Positions 15,589 through 60,773 of a stretch of DNA of 64,000 nucleotides are shown piece by piece; positions within the stretch are counted from its first letter, which is position 1, and each line of letters starts with the position of its first letter. Source of the DNA: a virus; the IMG/VR virus record IMGVR_UViG_3300038468_000190, positions 76,125 through 140,124 of that record. One strand, written 5' to 3'. A program made the position numbers and the translations under genes. The notes below the pieces were generated by a model. That model made no database searches and was not told where the DNA came from. It saw only the letters and a program-made list of their open reading frames with translations.

Positions 15589-16562
15589 CAGCGGAAATGC
15601 CTCCCCAGGTTTTCGAGGAGCTCCGTTTCCCTGATGGGCGGCTCGTAGGGCGTCGCCATCGCACCCGGGTCGAGAATGACCATGGAGAGCGGCCGCACGT
15701 CGCCCTCGATCTCCGCGTGGACGCGCCAGCCGACGTTCAAGAGGTGAAGGTCCTGAAAGACCAGGTCGCCGTACTGGACGGCGCTGAGCAAGGTCTGCCC
15801 AATGATGTCGCCGTAGCGGTTCACGTAGCCGTGGCCGCGCATCTTCTCGATGGCGGCGAGCATTTCCTGAAACGCCCTGTCGGCGATGTCCTCGACCTCT
15901 TCTTTCGAGAGGCCGTCGTACGCGCGGCGCATGAGCTTACCGCGCCAGGAATGGAAGATGAGCGCGTGCCGCCGGTAGTCCTGGAGCGACATCAGGACGA
16001 TGAAGAGCTCGCGCATCCGGACCTTCAGGTCTTGAGGAAACGTCGAGAGCGCGTCGCTCATCGCCGAGAGCGACGGTTCTTTCGGGTCGATGCCGGCCCG
16101 CTCGAGAATGGCCGGCGTCATACCGAGCCTGCGGAGCGTTTCCTCGGTCGCGAAGTCCGGGCGCCGGAGCACGGGCTCCGCCGCCTCGCGCACGATGCCA
16201 TAGACGGGCATCTCTTCGCTTCCGAAGATGACGTCCGGGTGGATCCGAACGACATCACGAACACGAAGGAACGCGTCGAGCTCTGCCGAGACCTCGGAAT
16301 CGCCGAGGAGCTCGGCCATGTAGGCCCAGATGGGGCCCTCGGTCCGGTCGCGGGTGAGCTTGACGACCCAGGGCGGCTCGGAGTCGAAGACGCAGCCCCA
16401 GAGCCCGCAGCCGAGGAGTTCTCCCATCGGGACAGCCATCGTCCGCCGAAACCGGTCGAGGTTTGCCTCGAGAAAGGAGGACCAGGCGCGCTTGGCCGCA
16501 AGCTCCTCGGTGAGCCCCTTGTCGAGCTCGATGGAGGTCATGGGCGCGCGGTTACGACGCAC
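15588..16562 (-). CDS. Protein kinase-like protein (paralog of 12918..13793)
   Basis: 'LLGCGLWGCVF', 'WVVKLTRDRTEGPIW', 'QDLHLLNVGW', 'ILDPG'. Confidence 0.75.
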   Translation of the reverse strand: MRRNRAPMTSIELDKGLTEELAAKRAWSSFLEANLDRFRRTMAVPMGELLGCGLWGCVFDSEPPWVVKLTRDRTEGPIWAYMAELLGDSEVSAELDAFLRVRDVVRIHPDVIFGSEEMPVYGIVREAAEPVLRRPDFATEETLRRLGMTPAILERAGIDPKEPSLSAMSDALSTFPQDLKVRMRELFIVLMSLQDYRRHALIFHSWRGKLMRRAYDGLSKEEVEDIADRAFQEMLAAIEKMRGHGYVNRYGDIIGQTLLSAVQYGDLVFQDLHLLNVGWRVHAEIEGDVRPLSMVILDPGAMATPYEPPIRETELLENLGRHFR

Positions 16563-16731
16563 CCGAAGGATTCTAAGTGAGGTCCCGGCCGGAATCGAGT
16601 GGGATCGGTTCGGGTCCCTGACGAGCTAGATCATCCATGGCGGTCGGCTGACGAAAACGCGCGAGCACCCGATTTCCTCTTCCTGACGAACGGCAATAAT
16701 CACTGGAAGCACGCCTGCTGCTGGTTGCGGC

Positions 16732-17776
16732 CTGACGAACGCCATCGGTCACCGTAGGCCTTCCACGCGATGAATCAGATCCTTGCCGAGTGGTCGCACC
16801 CTCTGACGAACGCCATCGGTCACCATAGGCCTTCCGAGCGAGAGCGTTGTGCAGGCGGCCGCGGTGATGCGAGCTGACGAACGCCATCCGTCACCCGGAG
16901 CCCTTGCGAGTAATATTGAGTGGCATGCCCGCGGGGACCTGAGTACTGACGAACGCCATCCGTCACCGTAGGCCTTCCGAGCTCGATGCGCCGGTTGCGC
17001 CTGTCGAGCCCGTGGGACTGACGAACGCCATCCGTCACCGTAGGCCTTATACGAGTCGCCCGAAAACATGGGCGCCGATGGGTGATCGAACTCTGACGAA
17101 CGCCATCGGTCACCGTAGGCCTTCCGATGGCGAACGACAGGCGTCCGCACCCCGGACCGAACTGCTGACGAACGCCATCGGTCACCGGAGCCCTTTGCGA
17201 GGTCGAGATCGAAATACGCTCGCCTCGTCCGAACTCTGACGAACGCCATCGGTCACCGGAGCCCTTGCGAGTCGCCACCGCCGTCGAGAACGGCGAGCTC
17301 CGGAGCACCTGACGAACGCCATCCGTCACCGTAGGCCTTCCGAGAAGCAGTGCGGCGTCTGGTACAGCCAGCGCGCAACCCTGACGAACGCCATCCGTCA
17401 CCGTAGGCCTTCCGAGCAGTAGCCGCGCCGGATGGATGGCGCTAACATTCGCACTGACGAACGCCATCCGTCACCGTAGGCCTTCCGAGTTTCCAACGGA
17501 GAGACTTGTACGGACAGAAAATGTCTGACGAACGCCATCCGTCACCGTAGGCCTTCCGAGTTCTCCGCCTGCGGGACTTCCGGCACGCGATCCATCTGAC
17601 GAACGCCATCCGTCACCGTAGGCCTTCCGAGCCGGAGGGCGGAGGGAATGATTCCGGAGAGACTCTCCTGACGAACGCCATCCGTCACCGTAGGCCTTCC
17701 GAGCTTTCTTTTTCGCCTCTTTAGACCTCTGCGCGTCTTCCTGACGAACGCCATCCGTCACCGTAGGCCTTCCGAG
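16732..17776 (-). CRISPR. CRISPR array: 15 repeats (36-bp consensus) and 14 unique 34-37-bp spacers
   Basis: Consensus on + is CTGACGAACGCCATCCGTCACCGTAGGCCTTCCGAG. Repeat starts are 16732, 16803, 16874, 16946, 17018, 17093, 17165, 17236, 17309, 17381, 17454, 17525, 17596, 17668, 17741. Degenerate stubs lie at ~16618, 16648 and 16683. On the minus strand the repeat ends in the hairpin UGACGGA-UGGCG-UUCGUCA. Confidence 0.97.
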
Positions 17777-19650
17777 CCGTCCCCTCGGAGCCGAGTGACT
17801 CCGAGGCTTTGCGGTGCGGTTTGCGAGCGGTGCAGATCGTCGGCTCTGCACTCGGCCGTAACTCGTGGAAGTTGTTCGTCGTCGGCTCTCGCGTCGCTGG
17901 ACCTCTCGAATGGGCTAGGGTGATCGATAGCATTCGGCCCCGAAGGGCCATCCGGTTGGTTCGCGGCGCCGGTAATGGCTCCGTTCCCCGTTCCACGCTT
18001 GTGGCGTGTCCGGTTCCGAGGGCGATCCGGCGGCGTGGAGGCCGAAGCCTCCTCCGCCGTGGTTCCGGTTCCACTCGGCATTGTCCGAAGGGCGGAGCCC
18101 TCCGGGTTTCCCCCGGCGAGTCCCGCCGGAGTTACTGGTGCGCCCGAAGGCGACCTGTAGTCTCGAAGATTCTTGGCGCTGTTCACTTCGCGGTCCTCGG
18201 TGTGGCCGCACGCGGGGCAGTGGAAATCCGGGTAGCCCGGATCCGTGTCCCTGACGTTACCGCACACCGAGCAGCGCCGCGAGCTCGCGAATTCTTTCTC
18301 CGCGAACTCCGTCGTGCCGCCGGCCCATCCCTGCTTGTATTCGATGCGCCGGCGGATGTCGCCCATGCGGGCAAACTGCACCCAGCCCGAGACGCGCTTT
18401 CGCGTCTGCTCGCCCGCCTCGGTTTTGCCGGCACGGGCCTTCATGTCCGCCACGAACGCGTCCCTCATGACGAGCGTCCCGGCGCCCGTGTCGACGACGG
18501 CGCGCGCGGCGCGGCCGGCAATGTAATCGCGGAGCTCGGTCGCGCGGCGCGAGTAGAGCGCCGCCTGAGCCTTGGCCCGGCGCCAGCCGTTCGACTGGAT
18601 GCGGTCTTTGCGCGGAGTGGTCTTCGGGTAGGCCTTGTGCCGGCGCGCCATGCGCCGCTGCCAGAGCGCGATCTTCCGCTCGTAGGCCGCGAGGCGCTTC
18701 TCTTCTCGGATGCCGACGATGTCCACCTCGCCGCCGCTCGTCACGACGAGATGCCGGACGCCGACCTCGACGCCGACGCGCTTGTCCGTCCGCGTCACGG
18801 GTCGCTCCCGGAGGGCTCTGCCGGCTCCACGGGGCCCAGGACTCGGCCGCGGCACAGTCCCCCTGAGCGAGACGTACCAGCGCCCGCCCCATTCGCGAAG
18901 GCCGACGGCGGAGCACTGCCCGCCCCCTATGAACCGATGCGAACCCTCCTCGGTCGACGGAAGATAGCCGCGCTCCTTGAGCTTCACCCAGCCGACGCCT
19001 GGGATCTTGATCGCCCGCTCCGTCACGCGAAGCGCGCTCGGCTGGTCGGCGTGCCAGCGGCGGTTATCGCCGGACCGAAAGCGGGGCTCTCCGAGTTCGC
19101 AGCCGGGCGCTCCGCGGCGAGCGTCACACTCGGAGTGATCGCCGCGCGCGTGCTTCTTCAGCCGGCGCCAGAAGTGCTTGTAGGCATTGCCGACGTCGGC
19201 GGCCGCTTCCCGAACGGCGAAGGCACTCACCTCCGTCAGCCAGCGGAGCTCGGCCGAAGCGTGCTTAACCGCCGTGAGCTCCTTGTGCAGGGCATCGGCG
19301 TTCGGCATGGACTCGGGCTCCGCGTACGGGAGCCTCACCTGAAACTTCCAGAGCGTCCGTGGCGCCGCGCCGCGCTTGGCGCGCTTGGCCAGGCGCTCCG
19401 CGGGCTCTCCGAAGACGAGGGCGTGAAGGCCGAGCCCGAGCCACCACGCGGCGAGCCCGGTAGCGTGATCGAAGCCGGCAAGGGCCCGAAGGCCGCTAGC
19501 GACAGAGTAGATGCCGTACTCGGCGCGCCAGCGCTCGAGAGTCCAGTTGTACGCCACGCGTGCCGCTGCGATGTGCCGCGCGAGCAGGCGCCGTTGCTCG
19601 ACAGTGGGGTCGAGCTCGGTGCGGTAGGCGCGATCGATCATGTCGGTCAT
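17758..19650 (-). CDS. tnpB: TnpB/Cas12f-like RNA-guided protein with substituted RuvC catalytic residues (predicted nuclease-dead), CRISPR-associated
   Basis: N-terminal 'RAYRTELDPTVEQRRLLARHIAAARVAYNW', 'IKIPGVGWVKL', RuvC-I 'VGVEVGV', RuvC-II 'LVMRDA', Zn finger 'SSRRCSVCG...FHCPACG', RuvC-III 'DREVNSAKNL'. Confidence 0.92.
   Translation of the reverse strand: MTDMIDRAYRTELDPTVEQRRLLARHIAAARVAYNWTLERWRAEYGIYSVASGLRALAGFDHATGLAAWWLGLGLHALVFGEPAERLAKRAKRGAAPRTLWKFQVRLPYAEPESMPNADALHKELTAVKHASAELRWLTEVSAFAVREAAADVGNAYKHFWRRLKKHARGDHSECDARRGAPGCELGEPRFRSGDNRRWHADQPSALRVTERAIKIPGVGWVKLKERGYLPSTEEGSHRFIGGGQCSAVGLREWGGRWYVSLRGTVPRPSPGPRGAGRALRERPVTRTDKRVGVEVGVRHLVVTSGGEVDIVGIREEKRLAAYERKIALWQRRMARRHKAYPKTTPRKDRIQSNGWRRAKAQAALYSRRATELRDYIAGRAARAVVDTGAGTLVMRDAFVADMKARAGKTEAGEQTRKRVSGWVQFARMGDIRRRIEYKQGWAGGTTEFAEKEFASSRRCSVCGNVRDTDPGYPDFHCPACGHTEDREVNSAKNLRDYRSPSGAPVTPAGLAGGNPEGSALRTMPSGTGTTAEEASASTPPDRPRNRTRHKRGTGNGAITGAANQPDGPSGPNAIDHPSPFERSSDARADDEQLPRVTAECRADDLHRSQTAPQSLGVTRLRGDGSEGLR
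17777..18160 (-). ncRNA. Putative structured RNA scaffold/leader (omega/tracr-like) between the RuvC-III motif and the array
   Basis: Three cUUCGg tetraloop hairpins on the minus strand (17936-17949, 18037-18052, 18141-18152), a GGGGAAACCC hairpin (~18104-18113), and stems at 17783-17806 and 17830-17851. Confidence 0.6.
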
Positions 19651-19652
19651 GG

Positions 19653-19904
19653 TCAAGGGGTCTTCGGGACGGCGCACTCGATGATAAGGGCGTTCGGGGA
19701 CTCGCGGTAGGTGCAGGCGCGGGCGTTCGGGGAGGGCTTGGGACCGTCGCCGATGGTCCAGTGAGCCAGGAGGCAGAAGCCGACAAATGCGACGGCGCCC
19801 AAAAGCCAGAGGAATGGCCCGGGGACGCCCTTACGCGCGGCGACGATCACGCCGACCGTACACACGATGGAGAGCGCGACGTTCATGTGCTCGAAGAACG
19901 TCAC
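19653..19904 (-). CDS. Small membrane protein
   Basis: Two hydrophobic segments; GTGA coupling. Confidence 0.5.
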   Translation of the reverse strand: MTFFEHMNVALSIVCTVGVIVAARKGVPGPFLWLLGAVAFVGFCLLAHWTIGDGPKPSPNARACTYRESPNALIIECAVPKTP

Positions 19905-20815
19905 GGCGCCTTGCCTTTCACGAGCTCGAGGAGGCGCTGGGAGTTGTGCTCGAGCTCGAGCAGGCGCAGGGCGTTGTGCTCGTAGAGGAAGGCGATGTCC
20001 TTCTCGAAGAGCGGTATCGCCACGCGCGGCTGCGCTGCGCTGGGCGGATCCTGAAGTGCCGCTCCCAGAGGAAACCGGCAGACCGCAGGCCATCGCTCGT
20101 CGTTGATGTGCTCCGGAAGCATCATCGCCGGCACGAGCCCGAACGACCCGTCCAAAATCTCGGGATACGGCTCGACGCCAGCCGGCCAGTTCTCGTCACG
20201 CGTGTTCGGCATGAGAACGGGACAGCGCCGCTCCGTCTCGCGCATCCGCTGGTCGACCCTGCCGACGATGCGCCCATGCGGAGCGCGGAGTAGATGGAGC
20301 CCGAAGTGCGAGCGGATAGCCTGGGCGACGCCGCGCTCGATGTCGTCTAGCGGGGAGCGCCCGTCGTAGACTCCGCGGCTCCGTCGAAGCGTCGTTTTGA
20401 GAGGCCCGGACAGATCTCCGATGTACGCCTCCTGAGCGTCGTGAAGGAGCGCCTCGAGCTGGAGCGCGTAGTCGTCCGGATGCTCGAGGCTCACGACGAG
20501 CCACACCCAGAGCGAATGCTCAGCGACGGAGTAGCCCTTACCGGTGTGTCCGACGAAGCGGTTCAGGTGGGCGAGCGAGTGCGCAATATCCTTCAGGCGG
20601 ACGTCGCCCGGCTTCGGGCTCAAGAGATCGAAGCCGACCCCACTGAACGTCTCGATGATGGTCATGGGCTTCGGCCGCGTCTCGGCGAGGAGCGCCTCCG
20701 CCGCCTCGCGCCAGGTGGCGAAGTCGTCGCCGCCGACCGTGAGGCCTTCCATGGGCGTGAGCTCCTCGAGAGCTGTCTCGAGAAGGTCGAGGGCGGTTTT
20801 GAGGTGGTCGGTCAT
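19901..20815 (-). CDS. HD-domain 5'-deoxynucleotidase (YfbR/YfdR-like)
   Basis: 'DIAHSLAHLNRFVGHT...YSVAEHS', 'LLHDAQEAYIGDL..PLK'. Confidence 0.85.
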   Translation of the reverse strand: MTDHLKTALDLLETALEELTPMEGLTVGGDDFATWREAAEALLAETRPKPMTIIETFSGVGFDLLSPKPGDVRLKDIAHSLAHLNRFVGHTGKGYSVAEHSLWVWLVVSLEHPDDYALQLEALLHDAQEAYIGDLSGPLKTTLRRSRGVYDGRSPLDDIERGVAQAIRSHFGLHLLRAPHGRIVGRVDQRMRETERRCPVLMPNTRDENWPAGVEPYPEILDGSFGLVPAMMLPEHINDERWPAVCRFPLGAALQDPPSAAQPRVAIPLFEKDIAFLYEHNALRLLELEHNSQRLLELVKGKAP

Positions 20816-21084
20816 CGGTGATAGTTCGCGAAGTCTCGAATGGCCCTCCGGAGCATGACCCCCTCGAGCCCGCAATGGCCGCACGTGTCGGCGAGGGTCG
20901 CGTCGGACGCGTATCCTGCGAGCGCCCGCAAAAACCTCTGGAGCATGCGAAGGTGGTCGATGAAGCTGTGGTAGGTGTTCGTGATGTCCCGGAGTTCCTG
21001 GACCTGACGGTCGATGCTCCGCGCGAAGTCGGTCTTGTGATCCTCGTACTGGGGATCGAAGTCGGTGGGGCCGGGGCGGCTCAT
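20812..21084 (-). CDS. Hypothetical protein
   Basis: ATGA-coupled 90 aa. Confidence 0.55.
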   Translation of the reverse strand: MSRPGPTDFDPQYEDHKTDFARSIDRQVQELRDITNTYHSFIDHLRMLQRFLRALAGYASDATLADTCGHCGLEGVMLRRAIRDFANYHR

Positions 21085-45160: not shown

Positions 45161-48100
45161 ATGTTCTCGGAGAACCGTCCCGAGCTCGCCCTGCTTCGCG
45201 GCAAGCGCGGCCCCGACGTGCTCGAAAAGTGGACGGCTGTCTTCGGCGAGGGGCGCCAGGATACGACCGCGCGCTACCGGGAGATCCTCGATCGCATTGC
45301 GCGCCCTACCGCCGGCGAGGGGCCGTACGTCGGCCGTTACTCCAAGGAGACGGGGCGCGCGTACGGGCACGCCATCGCCGAGTTTTTCGAGTGGTGCGCA
45401 CGGCAGCATCGCCGGCCCGTCCTACCCCGCGAGGTCAGCCGGCGAGACGCCGAGGACTACGTCGCCTGGCTCGCCGATCGGCCCTTCAGCCTCGAAGAGG
45501 AGCGCCTCCGAGACGGCGACGCCGAGGGCCGGCTTACCATTTACGAGGCCGTGAAGAAGCTCGGCTCGGCCGATCTCTCGAGCATCCGGGCGGAGCTTCC
45601 CGAGCGGCTCGGAAAGAACAAGGCCGCGCTCGCGCACGAGCTCGGGCGGATGGTCCTTCACGATCTCCTCGTCCGGAGCCCGACGCTCGACGAGCTCAGA
45701 AAAACCGATCCGCAGATCGGCATCCGTCACTTCTCCGTGCCGATGCCCGGCGGCGGCGCCATGGATCTCGACGACGTCTTCGTCTACTCGACGCCGGAGC
45801 CCCGCGGCCTCAGCCGTTCGACGATCGCGCTCCGGCTCTCCGCCCTCTCGCGCTTCTGGCAGGAGCTCTGCCGCGGCGATCCGGAGACGCCGCCGCTCGT
45901 ACGGTTCAACGTGTTCGACGAGATCTTGTCGCGCGTCTCGCGGGGGCTCGCGGCCGATAAGCGCGCCGCGCGCGCGCGTAAGGCCCGGCTTACGCCCGAG
46001 CTCGTCTCGCGCCTGCTCAATGCGGCTGACGGCCAGACGCTCGTAGAGAAGCGCGACGCGGCGCTGTTTTGGTTCGTGGTGCTGATGGGCTCGCGCGTCA
46101 GCGAGGCGCGGCTCATCCTCCGGGACAAGCCCCGCGACGTCCACCACGCGCCGGGCTGGCTCGAGCCGCTCTCGACGCCGGTCGTCGTCGAGCTCGTCCG
46201 AAAGGGCGGCGTCCACCATCGCTTGCCCTATCCGCCGTACGCCCTCCGAGCGCTCTACGCGTTTCAGACCGAGCTCGAGCGCCACGCCGCGCCCCGCGGG
46301 AGCCAATCCGAAGATCCGCGCTCGCCCGGCTACGTCCAGCCGCGCTCGCCCAAGTGGCGCTACAAGGCGCTAGCCGAAGAGCCCGACGCGCCGCTCTTTC
46401 CTCCGGTCGTCTTCTGGGGCGCAAACTCCCCCGAGCTCTACGAGGAGCAGAAACCGAATCCCCTTCGGCCCGACTACCGCCGGCCGATGAGCGCGGCCGG
46501 CGTCCGGGCGATCTTGAAGAAGATCGCCAAGAAGGCCGGGCTCTCGCCGGAAGAAGAGCGCGCCGTCCACAGCCACGCCTTCCGGCACTTCGCGGCGACG
46601 GCCATGGCCCGTCGCGGTAAGCCCCTCCGCGAAATCAAGACCCTCCTCGGCCACTCGAGCATCACCGTCACCGAGGGCTACGTCGAGGACGAGACCGACT
46701 TGGCCGCGCTTTCCGGTCAGAACGAAATTCTTGACTACATCGCGACCGGCGAGACGGCGCCTGGCGCGCCCGCCCCCGCGCCCGCGCGCGTGGCGCCACG
46801 AGCGCCTCCAGAAGCGCCGCCGGCTCCCCCTCGGGTCATCGAGACGGTCGGCGTCAGAGCCCCTGAGAGGCGCCCCGAAGAGCCGGGATTGCCCGCCGAG
46901 TCGCCCACCGCCCGGAAGGGCCCCGAGACGCACGAGGTCGGAAGGGGCCTCGTCGCCGTCTCGGAAAAGGGGCCGCTCCCTCCCGACCGATTCCCCGGAA
47001 AGCCCGACGTCTCGGCGGGCTCGCCCTACTACGCCTACGCCGACATCGGCTCGGAAGACGCGGCCGACAGAGAGCCCATTCACTTCACCAGGGTAGGGCC
47101 CGCTCGAGCCTCCACGCGCGCGACGCTCTACGAGAAGGCCGGCAAGAAGATGGTCCAGGAGGATCCGTTTCTCGCCCGCCACTACGATCCGTGGCCGCTC
47201 GGCTACGGGATTGGCGAGACGTCGCTCCTTCCGTGGTTTGCGCGCGGCGCTGCCTCGAAGCACGGCGACGTCGTCGTCGACGTCCGCACGCGTACGGGCG
47301 AAAAGAAGAAGGCCGTCGTCCCGCCGCTTCCCGTCTTCGCCCCCGAGCAGCTCTACTCCGAGCTCAAGGCGAAGACGCTCTTCTCGCGGGTCGAAGCGAT
47401 GCGCGAGCGGTTCCTCAAAGAGGAGCCGACGAAGGCGTTCGGGCTCGACAGGTGGTGGGGCGCCTTTCAGGAAATCAGTAAGGGCCTCTCGGCTGGCACG
47501 AAGGGGAAGTTTCGATTCGTGCCGTTCGAGTCGGCGGGGGCGGTCGGTAAGGACGTCCGCGCCCACGACGACGAGTACCTCGCCGCCTGGCTCGAAAAGA
47601 ACGCCGGCCGCTACACGACGACCGTGAGGGCCTTCGAGAGCATCGAGCGGCCGCGCGGCGGGGCGCGCGACGAAGAAGAATGGGCCGCCTTCCGGGAGGC
47701 GTTTGCAAAGGCGTCGCTCGTCGGCGTGAGCCCGGCGGAGGAACTGCCGGACTGGTTTATCTTGGACGATCCCGTCAAAGACATCTGGAAGCAAAACCCG
47801 GAGGAGTGGGAGTGGTTTTCGAAATGGATCGGCGCCGTGACGGGCCAGAAGCTCACGAGCGCGCGAAAGGACGAGCGCGCCTCCGAAGTCCGGCTCGCCG
47901 AAGAAACGCGCCGCACGCGGATCGACGAAGCCCGCGAGCTCCTCAAGGCCTACTTCGAAAGCGTCGAGACCCTGCACCGCGCGGGGCGCGCGCGCGACAA
48001 GGACGAGGCCGACAGGGAGCGCGAGACGATTGCCCTTCTCACCGAGCGCCTGGGAGCCCTCGGCGTCAGGGATCCGAAGACGGCCAAAGAGCTCCCCCGC

Positions 48101-49000
48101 ACGCTCTCGGCGCGGATCGAGACGCTCCTCTCCGAAGCATTCCCCGAAGCCGGCGTCGAGCTCGTCGACCCGAACGTCCTCGAGAGCTCGCTCTTCGACA
48201 AGGAGTCATTTCGGATTGACAGGTTCGAGCACACGATTGTCCACACGGAAGCTTTCCGCGCGGAGTTTGCCGAGCGCTACGACGGGCGGGACTCGGAGTG
48301 CGTGATGCGCCGCGCGGCGCGCGGAATGTGGGAGCACGTGAAGCGCCATGGCATTCCGATCCAGCGCGGCACCGAGCGGTCGAGCGAGTACAGCCTTCTC
48401 TACTCGGTCATGCTCTCGTACATCGCCTGGATCGTCCCCTGCCCGCCGGACATCGAGAAGCGCATGACCGAAGTCACCAAGGGCGAGCTCACCGGCGAGG
48501 AGGCGCGCCTTCGCTACCTCGGAGCGTTCCGGAAGGCGTCCGCGCGGCTTCTTCGCGTGACGCGTGACCACGACGAGGAAGAGCTTCTCGAAGCCGCGAT
48601 GGACGAAGGGCTCGACGCGATGGGCGCGGCCGAAGTCCTCGAAGCCTCCCTCGTCGAGGACAGCCTCCGGGCCGCCGTAGCGCTACCGAGCGCGCCGGTC
48701 ACCGAAGCTCTGGCCCGCACGGCCGTAGAATCCGGCGCCGTCGCGGTCAGTAGCCGCCGCCCCGCCGTCATCGTGGCGCGACGCGTGGGCCGGCAGGTCG
48801 TTCGCGACGTGCCGGTGCCGGCTGCTACCTACTTCTCGGTCGGCGACGACGACGAGGATGCCGAGCTCGCGCCGAATGCGCCTCCCCGGCGCTACCTGAC
48901 GCCGAATGCTCTTCGCGCGGGCCTCGCCTCCATGCGCCGGCCCGAAGAGACGATGCCGTCCGTCCTCCGTATGATGACGGCGATGACGATCGGCTTTTAG
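45161..49000 (+). CDS. Giant (1279 aa) tyrosine recombinase with long C-terminal extension
   Basis: 'RDAALFWFVVLMGSRVSEA', 'RKGG', 'HSHAFRHFAAT', 'LLGHSSITVTEGY' give a complete R-K-H-R-H-Y set; SAM-like 'STIALRLSALSRFW'. Confidence 0.9.
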   Translation: MFSENRPELALLRGKRGPDVLEKWTAVFGEGRQDTTARYREILDRIARPTAGEGPYVGRYSKETGRAYGHAIAEFFEWCARQHRRPVLPREVSRRDAEDYVAWLADRPFSLEEERLRDGDAEGRLTIYEAVKKLGSADLSSIRAELPERLGKNKAALAHELGRMVLHDLLVRSPTLDELRKTDPQIGIRHFSVPMPGGGAMDLDDVFVYSTPEPRGLSRSTIALRLSALSRFWQELCRGDPETPPLVRFNVFDEILSRVSRGLAADKRAARARKARLTPELVSRLLNAADGQTLVEKRDAALFWFVVLMGSRVSEARLILRDKPRDVHHAPGWLEPLSTPVVVELVRKGGVHHRLPYPPYALRALYAFQTELERHAAPRGSQSEDPRSPGYVQPRSPKWRYKALAEEPDAPLFPPVVFWGANSPELYEEQKPNPLRPDYRRPMSAAGVRAILKKIAKKAGLSPEEERAVHSHAFRHFAATAMARRGKPLREIKTLLGHSSITVTEGYVEDETDLAALSGQNEILDYIATGETAPGAPAPAPARVAPRAPPEAPPAPPRVIETVGVRAPERRPEEPGLPAESPTARKGPETHEVGRGLVAVSEKGPLPPDRFPGKPDVSAGSPYYAYADIGSEDAADREPIHFTRVGPARASTRATLYEKAGKKMVQEDPFLARHYDPWPLGYGIGETSLLPWFARGAASKHGDVVVDVRTRTGEKKKAVVPPLPVFAPEQLYSELKAKTLFSRVEAMRERFLKEEPTKAFGLDRWWGAFQEISKGLSAGTKGKFRFVPFESAGAVGKDVRAHDDEYLAAWLEKNAGRYTTTVRAFESIERPRGGARDEEEWAAFREAFAKASLVGVSPAEELPDWFILDDPVKDIWKQNPEEWEWFSKWIGAVTGQKLTSARKDERASEVRLAEETRRTRIDEARELLKAYFESVETLHRAGRARDKDEADRERETIALLTERLGALGVRDPKTAKELPRTLSARIETLLSEAFPEAGVELVDPNVLESSLFDKESFRIDRFEHTIVHTEAFRAEFAERYDGRDSECVMRRAARGMWEHVKRHGIPIQRGTERSSEYSLLYSVMLSYIAWIVPCPPDIEKRMTEVTKGELTGEEARLRYLGAFRKASARLLRVTRDHDEEELLEAAMDEGLDAMGAAEVLEASLVEDSLRAAVALPSAPVTEALARTAVESGAVAVSSRRPAVIVARRVGRQVVRDVPVPAATYFSVGDDDEDAELAPNAPPRRYLTPNALRAGLASMRRPEETMPSVLRMMTAMTIGF

Positions 49001-51599: not shown

Positions 51600-52520
51600 G
51601 GCTGCCTTACCGCCGTGCCAGGCGCGAGCCCATCCAGCGGATCACCGTCTCCCCGCTCGATCGCTTCCTCCCGTAACCGGATGGCCTCGGCAAGGTAACG
51701 CGCCGACTCGAGGGCGGCTGCCTCGTCGTTCGGGCGGAAGGCGAGCTCGGCGCACGCGAAGCGCTGCACCGACAGATACCTGAGGCTCGGCTTCTTGTCG
51801 TTCTCCTGGCCCGGGCGGTACTCGCGCCAGATCGCGTCGCGCGTTTTCTTCCTGAGCGCGAACCAGTGGGCCCTGCACGCGAACATCTTCGGCGGGACCT
51901 GCCGGCTGCAGCCCGGCGCGTGGCAGGTGTGGCTCACCAGTCCTCCTCCGGACATTTGCACACCACTCGACCCGACGGCTCGCGAAAACATCCGGACCTG
52001 TCCCAGCCCGGCGGATCAGCGGCATTGAGAACGACGTCGTCGATCTCGAGTGAGCCTCCGATGCCCGGCGCTCTCAGGATTGATCCGTCCGGGGCCCTGA
52101 CGCCAATCCACATCGTGCCCAAGAGCCCGCACACGAAGATGCCCTTGTCGGTCTCGAGAAGAACGTCCTCGTGGCATACGTAGCCGTCCGCATCCTTCAT
52201 CCAGTCTCGTAGCGTTTTGCCGACGGCAAACCACTCGAGCGGACTCGTGCCGCCGGTCGTCGTGGCGATCATGTCTCGAATCAGCTCGCCGTCCGTTTTC
52301 TCGCTCATCGCTCCAAGTGCTCCCGTAAGAGACGTCTTTCCATCTCTTCTCTCGACGCCGCCTGCGCCATGGCGAGCACCGCCGCGAACTCCGGAATGGT
52401 CATCGTGACCGCGGGCTGCGAAAACCCCATCGGAATAAGACTCACTCGCGCCGGATCTCCGTCGGGAAATCCCATGGAGAGCGACACGGTGTAATGATTG
52501 ACCTTCCCTAGCTCCTTCAT
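51596..52520 (-). other. Three small hypothetical genes
   Basis: 51596..~51937 ('HTCHAPGC...MFACRAHWFAL'), 51934..52308, 52305..52520. Confidence 0.6.
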
Positions 52521-53632
52521 GGTCCCGTCCTTTCCGCGCCGATCATGGCCCTGAGCGCGGGCTCGTTCTTCTTCGGCCAGCTCCATGCTGCTCCGATCGC
52601 CAGGGCGTTCTTCTCGGCCGCTTCGGAGAGCCAGGTCCACCGGTCGTAGGCTTCCTTGATCCCAGCCGCGATGGCCTCGAGCGTGACGGACGGCGCCGTC
52701 GCTCCCGGGAAGTCGTCGAGCGGCATGCTTGCGCCGTGCTTCACCTCGACCATCCCTGGTAGCGCAATCGCTGCGTACTCCGAGTGCCCCGTGCACGTCG
52801 TGATCGCGACGGGCGTGCCGGTCGCCAGGGCCTCGAGCGGCACCATCCCGAACCCCTCTGCCCGCGACGGCTGACAGACGAGGTGCATCGAATTGTAGAG
52901 CGCCGCGATCATGCGCTGCCCGAGCGTGAGCCCGGGGCTTACCGTGACGTCGTCCTCGGTGAGCGCGTAGTCGGCCGCCCACCAGCGCACCTTCGAGCAG
53001 TGGGTCGGATTCATGACGACGTAAAGGCGCGCCGTCGCCGGGATGGCGCGCTTGTCCTTCAGGATCTTCCACGCACCGAGAAGGAGCTTCGTGCTCTTCC
53101 TCTCCGCCTCCGTGCTCGACATGTGAAGCACGTTGAAGAGACCTTGCGCGTAGTCTTTCCGCGTTGCCTCGAGCCTCGGCGCAAACGGGCGGTGCACGTT
53201 CGAGAAGACGCCGTGCGGCGCGACGAGGACACGCTTGTCGGGCCACGCTTTCGAGAGGACCTTTGCCCCCCACGCGCTCGGTGTGAGCAGGCCCCCGGTC
53301 AGCAACCCGCGCGGCAAGATGTCGCTCGGCTTCGTGACGGCCTCTATGAAACCGTGCGGGATCGTTTCGCTGTTCGGGGCAAGAAGGAGCCAGTGCTCCT
53401 CGTGGCCGCCCGCTCGGTGCGCCCGAAGCAGGCCCTCCGGCGCCCCGATGTTCAAGGAGAGCCTCGCCGCCTCGCCGCCCGAGAGCCACTTCGCTATCGC
53501 CTCGGGCTCGCCATCGAGCGGATAGAGCCCAGCGAGCTCGCCCATCGCGACAAGGCTCTCCGTCATCCCGCGCGTCACCTGTGAAAACGAGCTCTCGCCG
53601 CTCGCGTAGCCGTAGAGCCTGACGGAGTTCAT
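52517..53632 (-). CDS. Glycosyltransferase family 4 (GT-B)
   Basis: 'PSRAEGFGMVPLEALATGTPV', 'TPSAW', 'PHGV', 'ERKS'. Confidence 0.9.
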   Translation of the reverse strand: MNSVRLYGYASGESSFSQVTRGMTESLVAMGELAGLYPLDGEPEAIAKWLSGGEAARLSLNIGAPEGLLRAHRAGGHEEHWLLLAPNSETIPHGFIEAVTKPSDILPRGLLTGGLLTPSAWGAKVLSKAWPDKRVLVAPHGVFSNVHRPFAPRLEATRKDYAQGLFNVLHMSSTEAERKSTKLLLGAWKILKDKRAIPATARLYVVMNPTHCSKVRWWAADYALTEDDVTVSPGLTLGQRMIAALYNSMHLVCQPSRAEGFGMVPLEALATGTPVAITTCTGHSEYAAIALPGMVEVKHGASMPLDDFPGATAPSVTLEAIAAGIKEAYDRWTWLSEAAEKNALAIGAAWSWPKKNEPALRAMIGAERTGP

Positions 53633-53945
53633 GCGGAGCCCCGCGACGTCATCGTGCGGACGGCGACCTCGATCATCTCGGCCGGCAAGATCTTTCTGGC
53701 GCACGATCCGCAGAGCACCGTGAGCGCGACGAAGCCGAGCCCCGGAGGGCTCGTCACCGTCGTGAAGAAGTCGTTCTCCCAGGCTTGCCGCCGAAGATCT
53801 TCTACGTCGAACGGTATCGTGATGATGAGGCGCCTGTCACAGGCGACCGGCGGCTCGGAGTGCGGACCCGCGCAGTGGAGGTCGAGATAGACTTTGGGCT
53901 TCTCGACCTCCCCGCGGGTCTTTTTGCTGCGGCGCTCTCGGCGGT

Positions 53946-54717: not shown

Positions 54718-56106
54718 TCACCCGAAACTCCCTTGCTGTAAGAGCGCTGCCCTCGACTCGGGCGTCACGATCGACTCGATGCTCTTCACCATCATCCTGC
54801 CGACGACGTGCTCGCCGAATTCTCCGTAGAGCCCCGGGCTCTGCATGCGCACGGTCGGCGGCTCCGCGGCGCGGAGCGCGGCCATGATATTGGGGACAGT
54901 CGGGTTGACGCACCACGTAGCGTTCGGCTCCCAGCCGTAGCCCGCGTGCACCGAATCCAAGGCAGGGTGCAGCATGAGCCCGGACGGGCTGATGGCGACG
55001 TCGCCGCGCCGGGGCTCGGCGTAGTCCTCGGCGCCGCCCCAGCCGGTGAAAACGAGGCGATTGCCGGCGACCTTCGCATCGAAGGCCGGCAGATCCCACG
55101 CTTCGCCGTGCGAGCACGTCACGTAGACGTTGTTCATGCGGTGGACCTCAGCGAGCTGCGGGTCGGAGATCTTCTTCGTCACGATGCGAAGACGCTCGGC
55201 GTAGTTCGCATCCGTCCAGCCGTTCGAGATGACGGCGGGATCAGAGAGCCAGCTTCGGATGCTCTCGCCGGGCGTCGGGTAGTCCTTCCAGCTCCCCCAC
55301 TCGCTCGTCTTCAAAAAGAGCGAGGCCCGGTCCCGCCTCGTGAAGCCGAGGAGAAAGGCGCCGATGAGCGCGTGGTAGTTTTTCCGGGGCTCCCATTTGC
55401 CGATGGCGTAGAAGCGCTTGCCGCTCGGAACCGACTCCGATCCGCGCGGCGCCGCGATGTGCGCCGTCGGGCTCATGTCCGGCGCAAACGGGCATGGGAT
55501 GACGTCGACCCGTTTCACGCCGGCCTTCTTGAAGACGTTAGCGTTCATGCGGCAGGGGACCCACACCCGACCGCAACGGTTCAGGACCTCCACGAGCTCC
55601 GGATGCACCGTGCTCCGCTCCCACGACGTGTAGACGATCGTCGAACGGTACACGTTGAGCTCGTGCTCGAAGTCCACCATGCGCGCGCCCGGCGGACAGA
55701 TGACGTTCTCGGCGTAGTGGTGGTTGTGGAGGATGATCTGCCGAATAGCGACGGGCGACGACGAGAAGCTTGTAGCGCGGAGGTAGTCCATCTGCCGGCG
55801 CACTTCCGGATCGATCTCGTCGTCGAGCATCATGCGGTTCAAGGGGACAGACCGGAGCGCGACTGCCACGCCCGCGCGAGAGAGAGCCCGCGCGGCCGCG
55901 CGCGCATGGCGCGCGAGCCCATCGGCCGCAGGCTGCCAGGGCGCTTGGTAGATGACGCCGAGAGGCAGGAGCGCCTCCCTGCCGGGCGCCACGATCTCCC
56001 GAGCGAGCTCGGCCGGCGTCGGCTCCGGGGGCTTTCCGTCGCCGTCGAGAATCGACGAGGGCGAGAGGTAGCCCTCGAGCGACTGGAAGCCCTCCGGAAG
56101 CGTCAC
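54718..56106 (-). CDS. Glycosyltransferase family 4 (GT-B)
   Basis: 'YTSWE', 'VWVPC..N..VF', 'KWEPRKN', 'SHGEAWDLPAFDA'. Confidence 0.88.
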   Translation of the reverse strand: MTLPEGFQSLEGYLSPSSILDGDGKPPEPTPAELAREIVAPGREALLPLGVIYQAPWQPAADGLARHARAAARALSRAGVAVALRSVPLNRMMLDDEIDPEVRRQMDYLRATSFSSSPVAIRQIILHNHHYAENVICPPGARMVDFEHELNVYRSTIVYTSWERSTVHPELVEVLNRCGRVWVPCRMNANVFKKAGVKRVDVIPCPFAPDMSPTAHIAAPRGSESVPSGKRFYAIGKWEPRKNYHALIGAFLLGFTRRDRASLFLKTSEWGSWKDYPTPGESIRSWLSDPAVISNGWTDANYAERLRIVTKKISDPQLAEVHRMNNVYVTCSHGEAWDLPAFDAKVAGNRLVFTGWGGAEDYAEPRRGDVAISPSGLMLHPALDSVHAGYGWEPNATWCVNPTVPNIMAALRAAEPPTVRMQSPGLYGEFGEHVVGRMMVKSIESIVTPESRAALLQQGSFG

Positions 56107-56372
56107 GTGGGCTCGGGTTCGCTCTCGGGCTCCGGATCGTCGTCTTCCTCTGGCTCGTCTTCCTCGTCGTCCTCGTACGGCCTGGTCTCGGTCCGCAGCG
56201 TCATCGCGACGAGATTCTTGCCGGCCTTTTCCCGCTGCTCTTGAAACCACTTCTCGAACGCGTTCCACCACGCCGGCACCTCGCCCGTCGGCGGGTACTC
56301 GCCGTAGCTGTCGGCGAACGCGTCCAGGCACTCCGCTCGCGTCACCCACTCGAACTCGTGTTTTCTTGCCAT
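56103..56372 (-). CDS. Small protein with acidic tail
   Basis: 'EDDEEDEPEEDDDPE'. Confidence 0.55.
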   Translation of the reverse strand: MARKHEFEWVTRAECLDAFADSYGEYPPTGEVPAWWNAFEKWFQEQREKAGKNLVAMTLRTETRPYEDDEEDEPEEDDDPEPESEPEPT

Positions 56373-56540
56373 CCTACCGCTCCTTTTTCCGCGCTCGTCT
56401 CTCGCGCTTGCGCTCGTTACGGGATTTCGTGACTGCCGGGTGCGCCCGGAACATCAGGGTCTCGGTGTGCGTCGGCTCGACCTGCCTCCTCAGAACGACG
56501 TCGACGGCCTCGACCCGATCGACAAGGCGCTTCTTGAGAC

Positions 56541-58304: not shown

Positions 58305-60770
58305 TCACGGAGTCGACCGCACCCACCAGGCGTCCACCCGAAAGCCGTTGCCAGTGTTGTCGGTTCCGGGCTGCACGTATTTGATGCTGAGCCACTGTCC
58401 TCCGGTCATCTCGACCGGATTCGTCAGAACCTCGGCGGAATTCGTCGCGTGGACCAGGACGGCTGAGAGCGCCGTGTCCGTCGCCATGTCGAGCCGGAGC
58501 GTGAACGTGAGATCGTCCGTCGTCATGGCGGTATTCACACGCACTCTCAGGCCGAGCGCCACCCACTTGTCGGTCGAGGCGCCCGGCACCTGAAGGGCGA
58601 CGTTCAGTTCGGTTGCGTTCAGTCCCTGGCCGGCCGCAGCCGTCGGACAATAGCGTGTGACCGCCGCCGCGGCGGGTCCAGAGAAACCCCATTGCCAGCC
58701 GCCCGAGAGATTCGGGTAGGTGAGGACGACGTTCGCCCAGAGGCCCGTGACGCCGAGCCCAGTCCAATCGACGGGGCCGCCAGGAATGGACGGCTTGGCG
58801 CCGAGCGTCCACGCGCTCGCCTTGTTGAAGGCGATGGCCGACGTGCCGAAGGCGTTATTGAGTCCCCAGATGAGATTGAAGATCGAGTCCGTCCGGACGA
58901 ACGCGCCGCCTTCGAGCCCGATGGCGTTATTGCCCGTGCAGTCGACGAACTGCATGTCGTTGTTGGCTTCGGTCGGCGCCTGATAGATGCCGCCATTTTC
59001 GATCGAGAGCCGCACGTTGTCCCAGCACGAGCCTTCGAGCTGCTGGATAAGCCCGTGGCTTGCGACGAGCAGGACGCCGGCATTTCCCGTGTCCGTCGTG
59101 TAGACGCACATCCGATTGATCTGTTTCTGGTTTTCGATGAAGACCTGCCCCGTCGTGGTTTCGTACTGGCAGACGCTCGTCGTGCACTCGCCGTCGCGAA
59201 ACATGATGTCGCCGCCCGCGCCACTGCCGACGAGCTTGCATGCATAGAGGATCATCTCGCCCGCTTCGTGACTCGAACCTTGGACGCGGTGCGCGCTCAC
59301 CTTGTTGTCATACGGATTGACCTGGCAGTCGCGGATCACCATCCTGCCGCCGCCCGTGATCTGAATGTTCAGGGTGCCGAGGTTCGAGTTGAAGGTCTGC
59401 TTCTCGTAGGTATCGCCTACGGCCGGGTTGAGATTGGAAACGGTCAGCGTCGTCAGCGGGTCGGCGATGAAGCCCCAACGCGTGACGTTGACGGTCCCGC
59501 CGACGCCAGCCGAGACGACCCGTGTCACGTAGGCGATGGCGCCCGTCGCAGCGCCACTGGTCACCTGGAGCCGTTGCCGATCTATGGCGGCCGCCCCCGT
59601 AGCGACGACTGTGCCGCGTTGGGCGCCAGCGTTCGTCGCGGCAGCCCCGGCCAGGGTCGGTAAAAGCCCCGCGGCAAACGTGTCGGCAACGCCAGTGAGT
59701 GGTGCCCCTTGAACGAGAAGTGTGCCGGTATTCGGAGCAGCGAGTCCCGTATCTCGAAGTTCGATCTGCAAATCGAAGACGTCGCCCGAGTAGTCACCCG
59801 GACCGAGCGTCACGGTGACCGCGTGGTCGATGACGGCGCCACGAAGGCGGTTACAGAGTTCGCGAATCGTCTTCAGAGGCGTGAGCGCGGTGGTGCCGTC
59901 GTTGCCGTCGTTACCCGCGCCGAAGTCCAAAAACCACGTCGTCTCGTATTGAGCGGCGAGATTTCGCACGTACTGCCGCGTGAAGATCGCTCCGGCGGGT
60001 CCTGCCGGTGCGACAGCGTTTGCGACATCGGCCGCTGCTAAGAGGGCGGCACTCGGCGACTTTTCGAGCTGGAAGAGGTCGTTATTGACGCCCACGGAAG
60101 CGAGCGCGAAGTCCGGCTGTGAGCTCGCATCGAAGGCGGCGAGCGCTGCGACGTTCGGGAATGCGAGCGCGCCCCCCGTGGGGCCCGTCGGACCGGTCTG
60201 ACCCGTTGCGCCCGTACTCGTCGCCGATCCGGGCACGCCCGTCGGACCCGTCGTGCCTGTCGGTCCCGTCGGACCCGTAGCTCCCGTGTTCGTGGCGCTC
60301 CCGGCGACTCCCGTGGGGCCGGTCGCGCCCGTCGGGCCCGTCGGGCCCGTCGATCCCGTTGGACCTGTCCTGCCCGTATCATCGACGAGCCCGGAGACGA
60401 TCATGCCCATGAAGAGCTGACCCTTGCTCGCGCCGGCGACCTGCACGTCGCTCACCCGACCCGACGTCGGTCGCGCGTGGCTCTCCGCGACGGAGAGTGC
60501 CTCGGCCTCGCTTGCCGCGTAGCAGCGGACCGACGGCGGCGTCGCAAACCCGCCGCTCACGTCGGCCGAGAGTCCTGCCTCGATCGTCACCGTGAACGCC
60601 ACTCCATCGCCCGCGCCAGCGAGCGTGATCCCGATGACGACGTAGTTTGCCGGAAGGGCGGTCAGAGCGGCGTTTACGCGGGCTTCGAGGTCGGTAGGCT
60701 CCGAGCTCTCGACCGAGCGACTTATGAGCGACGTCGCGCCCGTGACGACGACGCTGCCGTAGCGGGACAT
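58305..60770 (-). CDS. Collagen-like fibre/spike protein with beta-helix-like domain
   Basis: N-terminal AGAGDG domain, (GxT)n repeats, tailspike-type '[24 protein letters not shown]', beta-rich body. Confidence 0.8.
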
Positions 60771-60773
60771 CTC

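Follow-up and report, generated by a model that had tools for sequence, protein, structure and literature searches.

A putative phage-borne, Cas12n-like type V CRISPR system with an arginine at the RuvC-II position

The window analysed here is a stretch of 64,000 nt comprising bases 76125–140124 of the 140,124-bp IMG/VR virus record IMGVR_UViG_3300038468_000190, which represents a soil phage and to which CheckV assigns a completeness of 100 %. On its minus strand it carries a gene for a TnpB-like protein (P0001, hereafter the effector), a predicted structured RNA that overlaps the 3′ end of this gene and, directly downstream, a CRISPR array. An initial annotation of the sequence had described the locus as a minimal CRISPR system residing on a phage; the phage location is supported by the completeness of the record and by a complete relative of 136,226 bp (G001), which bears a member of the same effector family and has direct terminal repeats. 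We propose that the phage carries here a type V system resembling Cas12n, whose effector probably binds DNA without cutting it and which is used against sibling phages. The features of the effector are as follows.

17758–19650, minus strand: effector gene, 630 amino acids (aa) from an ATG at 19650
17758–19677, minus strand: the same open reading frame (ORF) from an alternative GTG start, 639 aa
19312–19518, minus strand: family-specific insertion of ~65 aa after the first helix, in the recognition (REC) region
18766–18768, minus strand: RuvC-I position, Glu (E304 of P0001), Asp in TnpB; mostly E in the family, less often D, once S
18463–18465, minus strand: RuvC-II position, Arg (R405), Glu in TnpB; invariant in the family, at the end of a predicted beta-strand
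18208–18273, minus strand: Zn ribbon (CxxC...CxxC, TNB domain)
18187–18189, minus strand: RuvC-III position, Glu (E497) in DRExN, DRDxN in TnpB; E or D in the family

Effector, scaffold RNA and array

The effector consists of a TnpB-fold core (residues 1–505) followed by a disordered C-terminal tail of ~125 aa, and its TGA stop codon falls within the first CRISPR repeat. Pfam searches returned HTH_OrfB_IS605, a weak OrfB_IS605 match and a Cas12f1-like TNB Zn-ribbon. The NCBIfam model guided_TnpB (NF040570) scored 139 bits against a cut-off of 100, and two models specific to insertion sequences (IS), NF038280 and NF038281, scored far below their cut-offs. In an AlphaFold2 (AF2) model, the predicted local distance difference test (pLDDT) exceeded 90 in the core and was ~35 in the tail; the best structural matches were ISFba1 and ISDra2 TnpB (Foldseek, template-modelling (TM) score 0.78–0.79 by target), with Cas12f, Cas12p, Cas12m and RdCas12n ranking below the TnpBs. 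As expected of type V, the locus thus has one effector, which combines a split RuvC fold of the TnpB kind with a Zn ribbon. The Zn finger initially described as intact keeps its four cysteines throughout the family, and the ~65-aa insertion, also seen at that stage, coincides with a low-confidence segment of the AF2 model (residues 55–110) and breaks each match to ordinary TnpBs into two stretches.

Downstream of the core, the DNA encodes the following features.

17777–18168, minus strand: structured scaffold resembling a trans-activating CRISPR RNA (tracrRNA) or omega RNA; overlaps the ORF tail, and its helices co-vary across 10 loci
17905–17936, minus strand: anti-repeat, an imperfect complement of repeat positions 1–32, upstream of the first repeat at a conserved distance
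17817–17830, minus strand: conserved scaffold motif CCGCTCGCAAACCG, kept across 10 aligned tails
16683–17776, minus strand: CRISPR array, comprising 15 repeats (36 nt each), a degenerate 16th repeat and 14 spacers (35–39 nt); newest end gene-proximal

The well-formed repeats (CTCGGAAGGCCTACGGTGACGGATGGCGTTCGTCAG) run from 17776 down to 16732 and the degenerate one occupies 16683–16718; the 3′ half of the repeat is its conserved part, and repeats distal to the gene are decayed. The initial observation of a TnpB-fold protein beside a co-oriented 15-repeat array was confirmed by ORF, Pfam, NCBIfam and repeat analysis. This association is conserved, as expected of a type V system: an array lies directly downstream in 9 of the 11 family loci with readable downstream DNA, and family arrays always begin at the end of the ORF, 353–465 nt past the RuvC-III motif. 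Genes for Cas1, Cas2, Cas4 and Y1 TnpA, noted as absent from the 64 kb, were found nowhere in the entire 140,124-bp record, where the effector gene occurs once and lacks IS ends. Effector and array are a conserved unit and not a decaying IS.

Two relatives depart from this layout. In L043, a syntenic relative phage (L043:6001–7473; JGI 3300031949, a 48-kb contig, with the same gene on a 115-kb ENA contig), member P0008 (490 aa, 52 % identical) ends right after RuvC-III and is followed by ordinary genes, with neither RNA tail nor array; this effector may be an orphan that is supplied in trans, or else the system is being lost. In L045 (L045:6001–7779), a 912-kb, chromosome-sized ENA/NCBI contig, member P0049 has the Arg at RuvC-II and lies beside an RVT_1 reverse transcriptase and a DUF4215 protein. 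The start of the scaffold RNA is present there, and the conserved 3′ motif and the array are missing. Given where the DUF4215 family is common, this neighbour hints at Myxococcota as the host lineage.

The tail of the gene evolves differently from the core. Its G+C content is flat across codon positions (.68/.67/.67), compared with.70/.55/.86 in the core. Against L128, a homologue with 80 % identity, the core shows codon-position identities of.86/.90/.63 and 137 synonymous versus 88 non-synonymous codon differences, indicating purifying selection. With 14 synonymous versus 37 non-synonymous differences, the tail evolves free of constraint on the protein, yet its DNA is ~90 % identical. Its indels relative to L128 have lengths that are not multiples of three, and the two tails differ by a UUCG-to-GCAA loop swap with the stem retained (18037–18052) and by a C-G to G-C exchange (17936–17949). 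When ten tails from loci whose effectors are 35–80 % identical to that of the window were aligned, RNAalifold returned a consensus fold of 54 pairs, 36 of them with compensatory changes (18.7±2.5 after shuffling; 9–19 when the partners were slid). The proportion of cells paired was 83.7 %, against 71.0±1.1 % after shuffling (0/500 as high) and 31–44 % with slid partners. No Rfam match was found in 16400–19800.

The anti-repeat follows the repeat of its own locus. Among eight loci with different repeats, alignment-based complementarity between the full repeat and the tail was 31–47 for cognate combinations and averaged 23.8 (maximum 31) for non-cognate ones, the true assignment being the sole one to reach the observed sum (permutation p = 2.5e-5). 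In 7/8 loci the anti-repeat site ends 124–135 nt ahead of the first repeat. RNAduplex energies computed with just 22 nt of the repeat failed to tell cognate tails from non-cognate ones. As the full-length anti-repeat co-varies with each locus's repeat, we identify the scaffold as a putative tracrRNA, and the locus is predicted to encode this tracrRNA-like scaffold in the position of an omega RNA. As to its RNA, the system is therefore not minimal, contrary to the initial annotation.

Effector family and its RuvC site

A word-indexed search returned ~48 homologues at 34–80 % identity; ordinary TnpBs, at ≤30 %, were set apart from these by a gap. When 1.84 billion representative proteins were searched exhaustively with phmmer, only 23 reached E≤1e-30. 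In a maximum-likelihood tree, which contained no Cas12n sequence, the 57 members formed one clade (Shimodaira–Hasegawa-like approximate likelihood-ratio test (SH-aLRT) 100, stem 0.51) nested within TnpBs with a D/E/D triad; the TnpB ancestry proposed in the initial annotation is thus upheld, as the clade branches from these and not from any solved Cas12. Members lie mostly on 85–140-kb contigs with phage genes, the genes around the effector are partly syntenic among the family phages, and no family member was found among 185,579 prokaryote species represented by one genome each.

In pairwise alignments with ISDra2 and ISFba1 TnpB, and likewise against 12–32 outgroup TnpBs, E304, R405 and E497 fell on the triad residues D, E and D, so that the altered triad initially placed at these three codons is confirmed as E/R/E. 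Arg occupies the RuvC-II position in every family member and Glu in every outgroup, and no other family-specific invariant acidic residue able to replace the lost Glu was found. The family pattern, E/D(/S)-R-E/D, departs from the canonical D-E-D triad, which is also missing in the accepted subtypes V-K and V-M. On these alignments, the RuvC changes are family-wide and selected. Because an invariant Arg flanked by E/D replaces the metal-binding Glu of RuvC-II, DNA binding without canonical two-metal cleavage is the most likely outcome; judged solely by these residues, the effector has probably lost its nuclease activity.

Relation to known systems

The known system that the locus most invites comparison with is Cas12n (type V-N, formerly V-U4; RdCas12n, AcCas12n), likewise a compact effector recently derived from TnpB. 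In Cas12n the C-terminal tail is disordered and the DNA coding for it doubles as the source of the tracrRNA (PMC12216341), a layout also seen in the window family. Its array lies directly downstream, adaptation genes are not nearby and guidance is by two RNAs (PMC12216341), an arrangement that we read here from the sequence. In contrast, Cas12n has an active DED RuvC site where the window family has E/D-R-E/D, and the window family has the ~65-aa N-terminal insertion and sits on phage-like contigs. Cas12n performs RNA-guided cleavage of double-stranded DNA with an A-rich protospacer-adjacent motif (PAM); the protospacer flanks found here are G/C-rich and inconsistent. Nor is the effector closer in sequence to Cas12n than to TnpB, as judged by hidden Markov model scores and phmmer E-values (RdCas12n, 9j09, 4.5e-11; TnpBs, 1e-15 to 1e-16). 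The PADLOC Cas12u4 model gave 136–174 bits for the family and 207–310 bits for ordinary outgroup TnpBs; a match to this model is therefore no evidence of V-U4 membership.

With the TnpBs of IS200/IS605 elements (ISDra2 and ISFba1, with their omega RNA or right-end element RNA (reRNA)), the effector has in common the fold, the guided_TnpB score above cut-off, a DRDxN-type RuvC-III motif and a guide-RNA scaffold overlapping the 3′ end of the ORF. It belongs to the TnpB protein family but does not reside in a mobile IS, unlike the TnpBs of obligate mobile element-guided activity (OMEGA) systems: it has no TnpA, is single-copy and not mobile, and lies in syntenic phage neighbourhoods. Whereas TnpB uses a single guide, the scaffold here is followed by a repeat–spacer array and includes a separate anti-repeat. 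The RuvC-II Glu has become Arg, and the folded part is ~100 aa larger.

Cas12m (type V-M) would be the best functional analogue of the window system. It is compact, has non-canonical RuvC triads (HDD, HEK, HQK) and acts by binding and transcriptional silencing, Cas12m2 with its HDD triad silencing without cutting (PMC10442227). By descent it is an unrelated branch (phmmer E 0.52 to UnCas12m4a; Foldseek TM 0.37–0.41), in which a large REC2 insert separates RuvC-I from RuvC-II and the substitutions are different ones. It also needs no tracrRNA, whereas the window locus has an anti-repeat, so that neither sequence, fold nor guidance by CRISPR RNA (crRNA) alone places the effector in type V-M. TldRs are likewise TnpB derivatives with a disabled RuvC, some of them prophage-encoded, that act as RNA-guided repressors (PMC13622181), a function that the window effector may have in common with them. 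They differ in using one fixed guide, aimed at the promoter of a host gene or immediately downstream of that promoter, and their description does not mention an array. The window family keeps the RuvC-III/Zn-ribbon region intact and has many guides that turn over; its 15-repeat array, its spacer turnover and the phage genes matched as targets set it apart from TldRs.

TranC (transposon–CRISPR intermediates) and the V-U6-45 groups of Altae-Tran 2023 combine TnpB-like effectors and short arrays, and their omega RNA has become a separate tracrRNA and crRNA. Phages harbour some TranC/V-U groups, and the catalytic site is altered in some V-U groups (PMC10691335; 10.64898/2026.03.27.714800). By published description, the TranC clades for which PAMs were recovered behave as nucleases, in contrast to our reading of the window family, and Arg at RuvC-II is not mentioned. 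Two phage-borne effectors were also considered. MvCas12m of myxophage MV-1 (10.64898/2026.09.14.751636) is unlikely to be the same protein, having kept the residues D305/E463/D555 at Cas12m-like spacings of 158/92 compared with 101/92 here. Identity with Cas12r of Thermus phages is likewise unlikely, judged on its 29-bp repeats, lack of a tracrRNA and RuvC dependence alone.

Precedents exist for type V systems on phages, for repeated transitions from TnpB to Cas12, for nuclease-dead derivatives and for a tracrRNA encoded within the tail. What appears to be new, and is undescribed in the literature surveyed (TranC and V-U6-45 being compared by description only), is this combination together with the Arg that never varies in a clade whose members lie mostly on phage-like contigs.

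Spacers, possible function and neighbouring genes

Of the 14 spacers, two have matches in the genome of the phage itself.

17345–17380, minus strand: spacer 6, matching a secreted-protein gene at 53449–53484 of the record; 33/36, mismatches at positions 2, 4 and 7
16982–17017, minus strand: spacer 11, matching a collagen-like fibre gene at 70472–70507 of the record; 35/36, mismatch at position 7

In both, the mismatches lie near the 5′ end of the spacer. Spacer 11 also weakly matches paralogous collagen-like repeats and has partial matches to collagen-like genes of G001; a search of the window array against G001 and a further relative, G002, returned these partial collagen-repeat matches and nothing else. 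G001 carries a self-match of its own (35/38, with positions 16, 36 and 38 mismatched); the spacer concerned matches the homologous region of the window phage at 31/38. Exact-word scans of IMG/VR with the newer spacers 1, 2 and 3 gave no match. Sister arrays (L002 versus L044 and L047 versus L054) have trailer spacers in common and differ at their gene-proximal ends, indicating polarised turnover. Between the near-identical 121.5- and 138.5-kb phage contigs L003 and L056, all seven spacers of L003 are held in common; L056 is ~180 nt longer between spacers 3 and 4, suggesting an internal gain or loss of about two repeat–spacer units.

By sequence match, these spacers derive from the phage lineage itself. 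Most simply, sibling phages would be in conflict, and mismatches would protect the resident copy. Since the matched guides target genes of the phage's own lineage, the system probably silences rival phages rather than cutting them. The initial annotation had proposed host or competing-element genes as targets; the matches found are to phage-lineage genes, and no host target was found.

Under this proposal, the effector, the ~390-nt structured RNA over its tail and the array would form one transcription unit. The anti-repeat would pair with nearly the whole 36-nt repeat, acting as a tracrRNA, and the resulting duplexes of ~32 bp may be cut by a host RNase, RNase III being the obvious candidate, or by the effector. 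Mature crRNAs would consist of the 3′ part of the repeat and a spacer, and the ribonucleoprotein would locate matching DNA, where the bound effector may block transcription or replication, as Cas12m does. Targeting of closely related phages would lead to superinfection exclusion, with the resident genome spared through mismatches near the 5′ end of the spacer. New spacers would join at the gene-proximal end, presumably through host machinery, the phage itself having neither Cas1 nor Cas2.

Several observations weigh against this proposal. Two relatives (L043 and L045) have no array; 12/14 spacers are unmatched in the sequences searched (three of them tried as exact words in IMG/VR); and the four protospacer flanks, which are G/C-rich and inconsistent, have no PAM in common. 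The locus also poses the question of how an array gains spacers on an element without Cas1–Cas2, and the uptake route counts against the proposal as well. The seed-side mismatches of the self-matches show just the harm of perfect targeting, which fits a cutter as well as a binder. Replacement of D by E at RuvC-I and RuvC-III is conservative and leaves two carboxylates in the site.

As the main alternative, the effector may be an active nuclease, perhaps nicking or using one metal, with a non-canonical centre (E/D at RuvC-I, E/D at RuvC-III, the conserved first Asp of DRE and the Arg), which destroys rival phage DNA like other phage-borne Cas12. The RuvC-II replacement is invariant and so selected, and Altae-Tran 2023 argues that conserved replacements of this residue can mark rearranged but active sites, reading them as retained activity in the RIIr clades (PMC10691335). 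Every member except one keeps acidic residues at RuvC-I and RuvC-III, the model shows with high confidence an intact Zn ribbon and an otherwise intact RuvC fold, mismatched self-matching spacers would be expected if perfect matches were lethal, and the phage-borne Cas12r is RuvC-dependent (10.64898/2026.04.20.719267). However, the rearranged clades have a compensating alternative Glu (PMC10691335), whereas our family has no specific invariant acid, and both carboxylates would be expected to lose their charge to a guanidinium in the metal-bridging position. G001 also tolerates a 35/38 self-match in which the first 15 positions are perfect, and Cas12m2 reverted to DED stayed non-cutting, altered triads going with a deeper loss of activity (PMC10442227). 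Retained cleavage is therefore unlikely, though it keeps appreciable weight.

The three near-perfect self-matches, from two independent phage genomes and all within virion or secreted-protein genes, could instead belong to a multiplexed, TldR-like RNA-guided repressor that tunes the phage's own structural and secreted-protein genes through partly matched guides; the altered RuvC site would fit such a role, and TldRs are themselves phage-encoded TnpB derivatives that repress transcription (PMC13622181). We consider this improbable, as sister phages show spacer turnover at the leader end, and fixed regulatory guides would not be expected to behave in this way. Furthermore, the self-matches are within coding sequence, on one strand or the other, and not in promoters, most spacers have no self-match, and spacer 11 falls in repetitive collagen-like sequence common to the lineage. 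A functionless IS lying by chance beside an orphan array, the outcome that would have undone the initial annotation, has in its favour the lack of adaptation genes and of a transposase in the record and the two relatives without arrays. Conservation already refutes it, leaving a negligible probability: the core is under purifying selection and the same residues are kept across 57 members; the gene–tracr–array layout is conserved in 9/11 loci, with co-varying anti-repeats; and there is one copy of the gene, without IS ends.

A fuller scenario, which we put forward tentatively, would be a separate TnpB-to-CRISPR transition on a soil phage lineage of ~120–140 kb, in which the Glu-to-Arg change made a natural 'dCas12' of ~500 folded residues, with a tracrRNA over its own tail and an array that gains spacers without phage adaptation genes, silencing sibling phages. 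If it binds without cutting, the effector would be among the few natural nuclease-dead CRISPR effectors, beside Cas12k, some Cas12m and dCas12f–sigma, and a virus-carried one serving virus-against-virus conflict; its ~500 folded residues and native multiplex arrays would make an attractive scaffold for programmable repression. Whatever the activity, the locus offers a clear snapshot of the split of an omega RNA into tracrRNA plus array, because anti-repeat, scaffold and first repeat keep the omega-RNA order.

The window has a G+C content of ~66 % and encodes an integrase-domain protein, collagen-like fibre proteins, an Amidase_2/PG-binding lysin, an AAA ATPase, glycosyltransferases and an FkbM methyltransferase. 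Megablast with 25 kb of the window found no DNA-level match to GenBank phages, and tblastn of the effector against them returned TnpBs at ≤28 % identity and nothing closer. A promoter and terminator scan gave nothing above chance. The integrase-domain protein (45161–48997, plus strand; 1279 aa) has a Phage_integrase catalytic domain and SAM-like N-terminal domains and is unusually long for a tyrosine recombinase. The glycosyltransferase at 52520–53836 (minus strand) also matches Pfam GT4-conflict (family 4 glycosyltransferases in conflict systems) and adjoins a second glycosyltransferase at 54721–56373. Collagen-like (G-x-y) fibre genes with long tandem repeats of 9/18/27 nt lie at 58308–60773 of the window (minus strand) and at 69552–70940 of the record (plus strand); the tandem repeats of the collagen-like fibre region occupy 60175–63877 of the window. 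Directly upstream of the effector, a 327-aa ORF (19901–20884, minus strand) had no Pfam match at E≤0.001 and is not kept beside the effector in other family loci; by eye, it shows HD-phosphohydrolase-like motifs (H..HD..E..GD). Within this ORF lies a 30-nt direct tandem duplication, 90 % identical, at 19921–19982.

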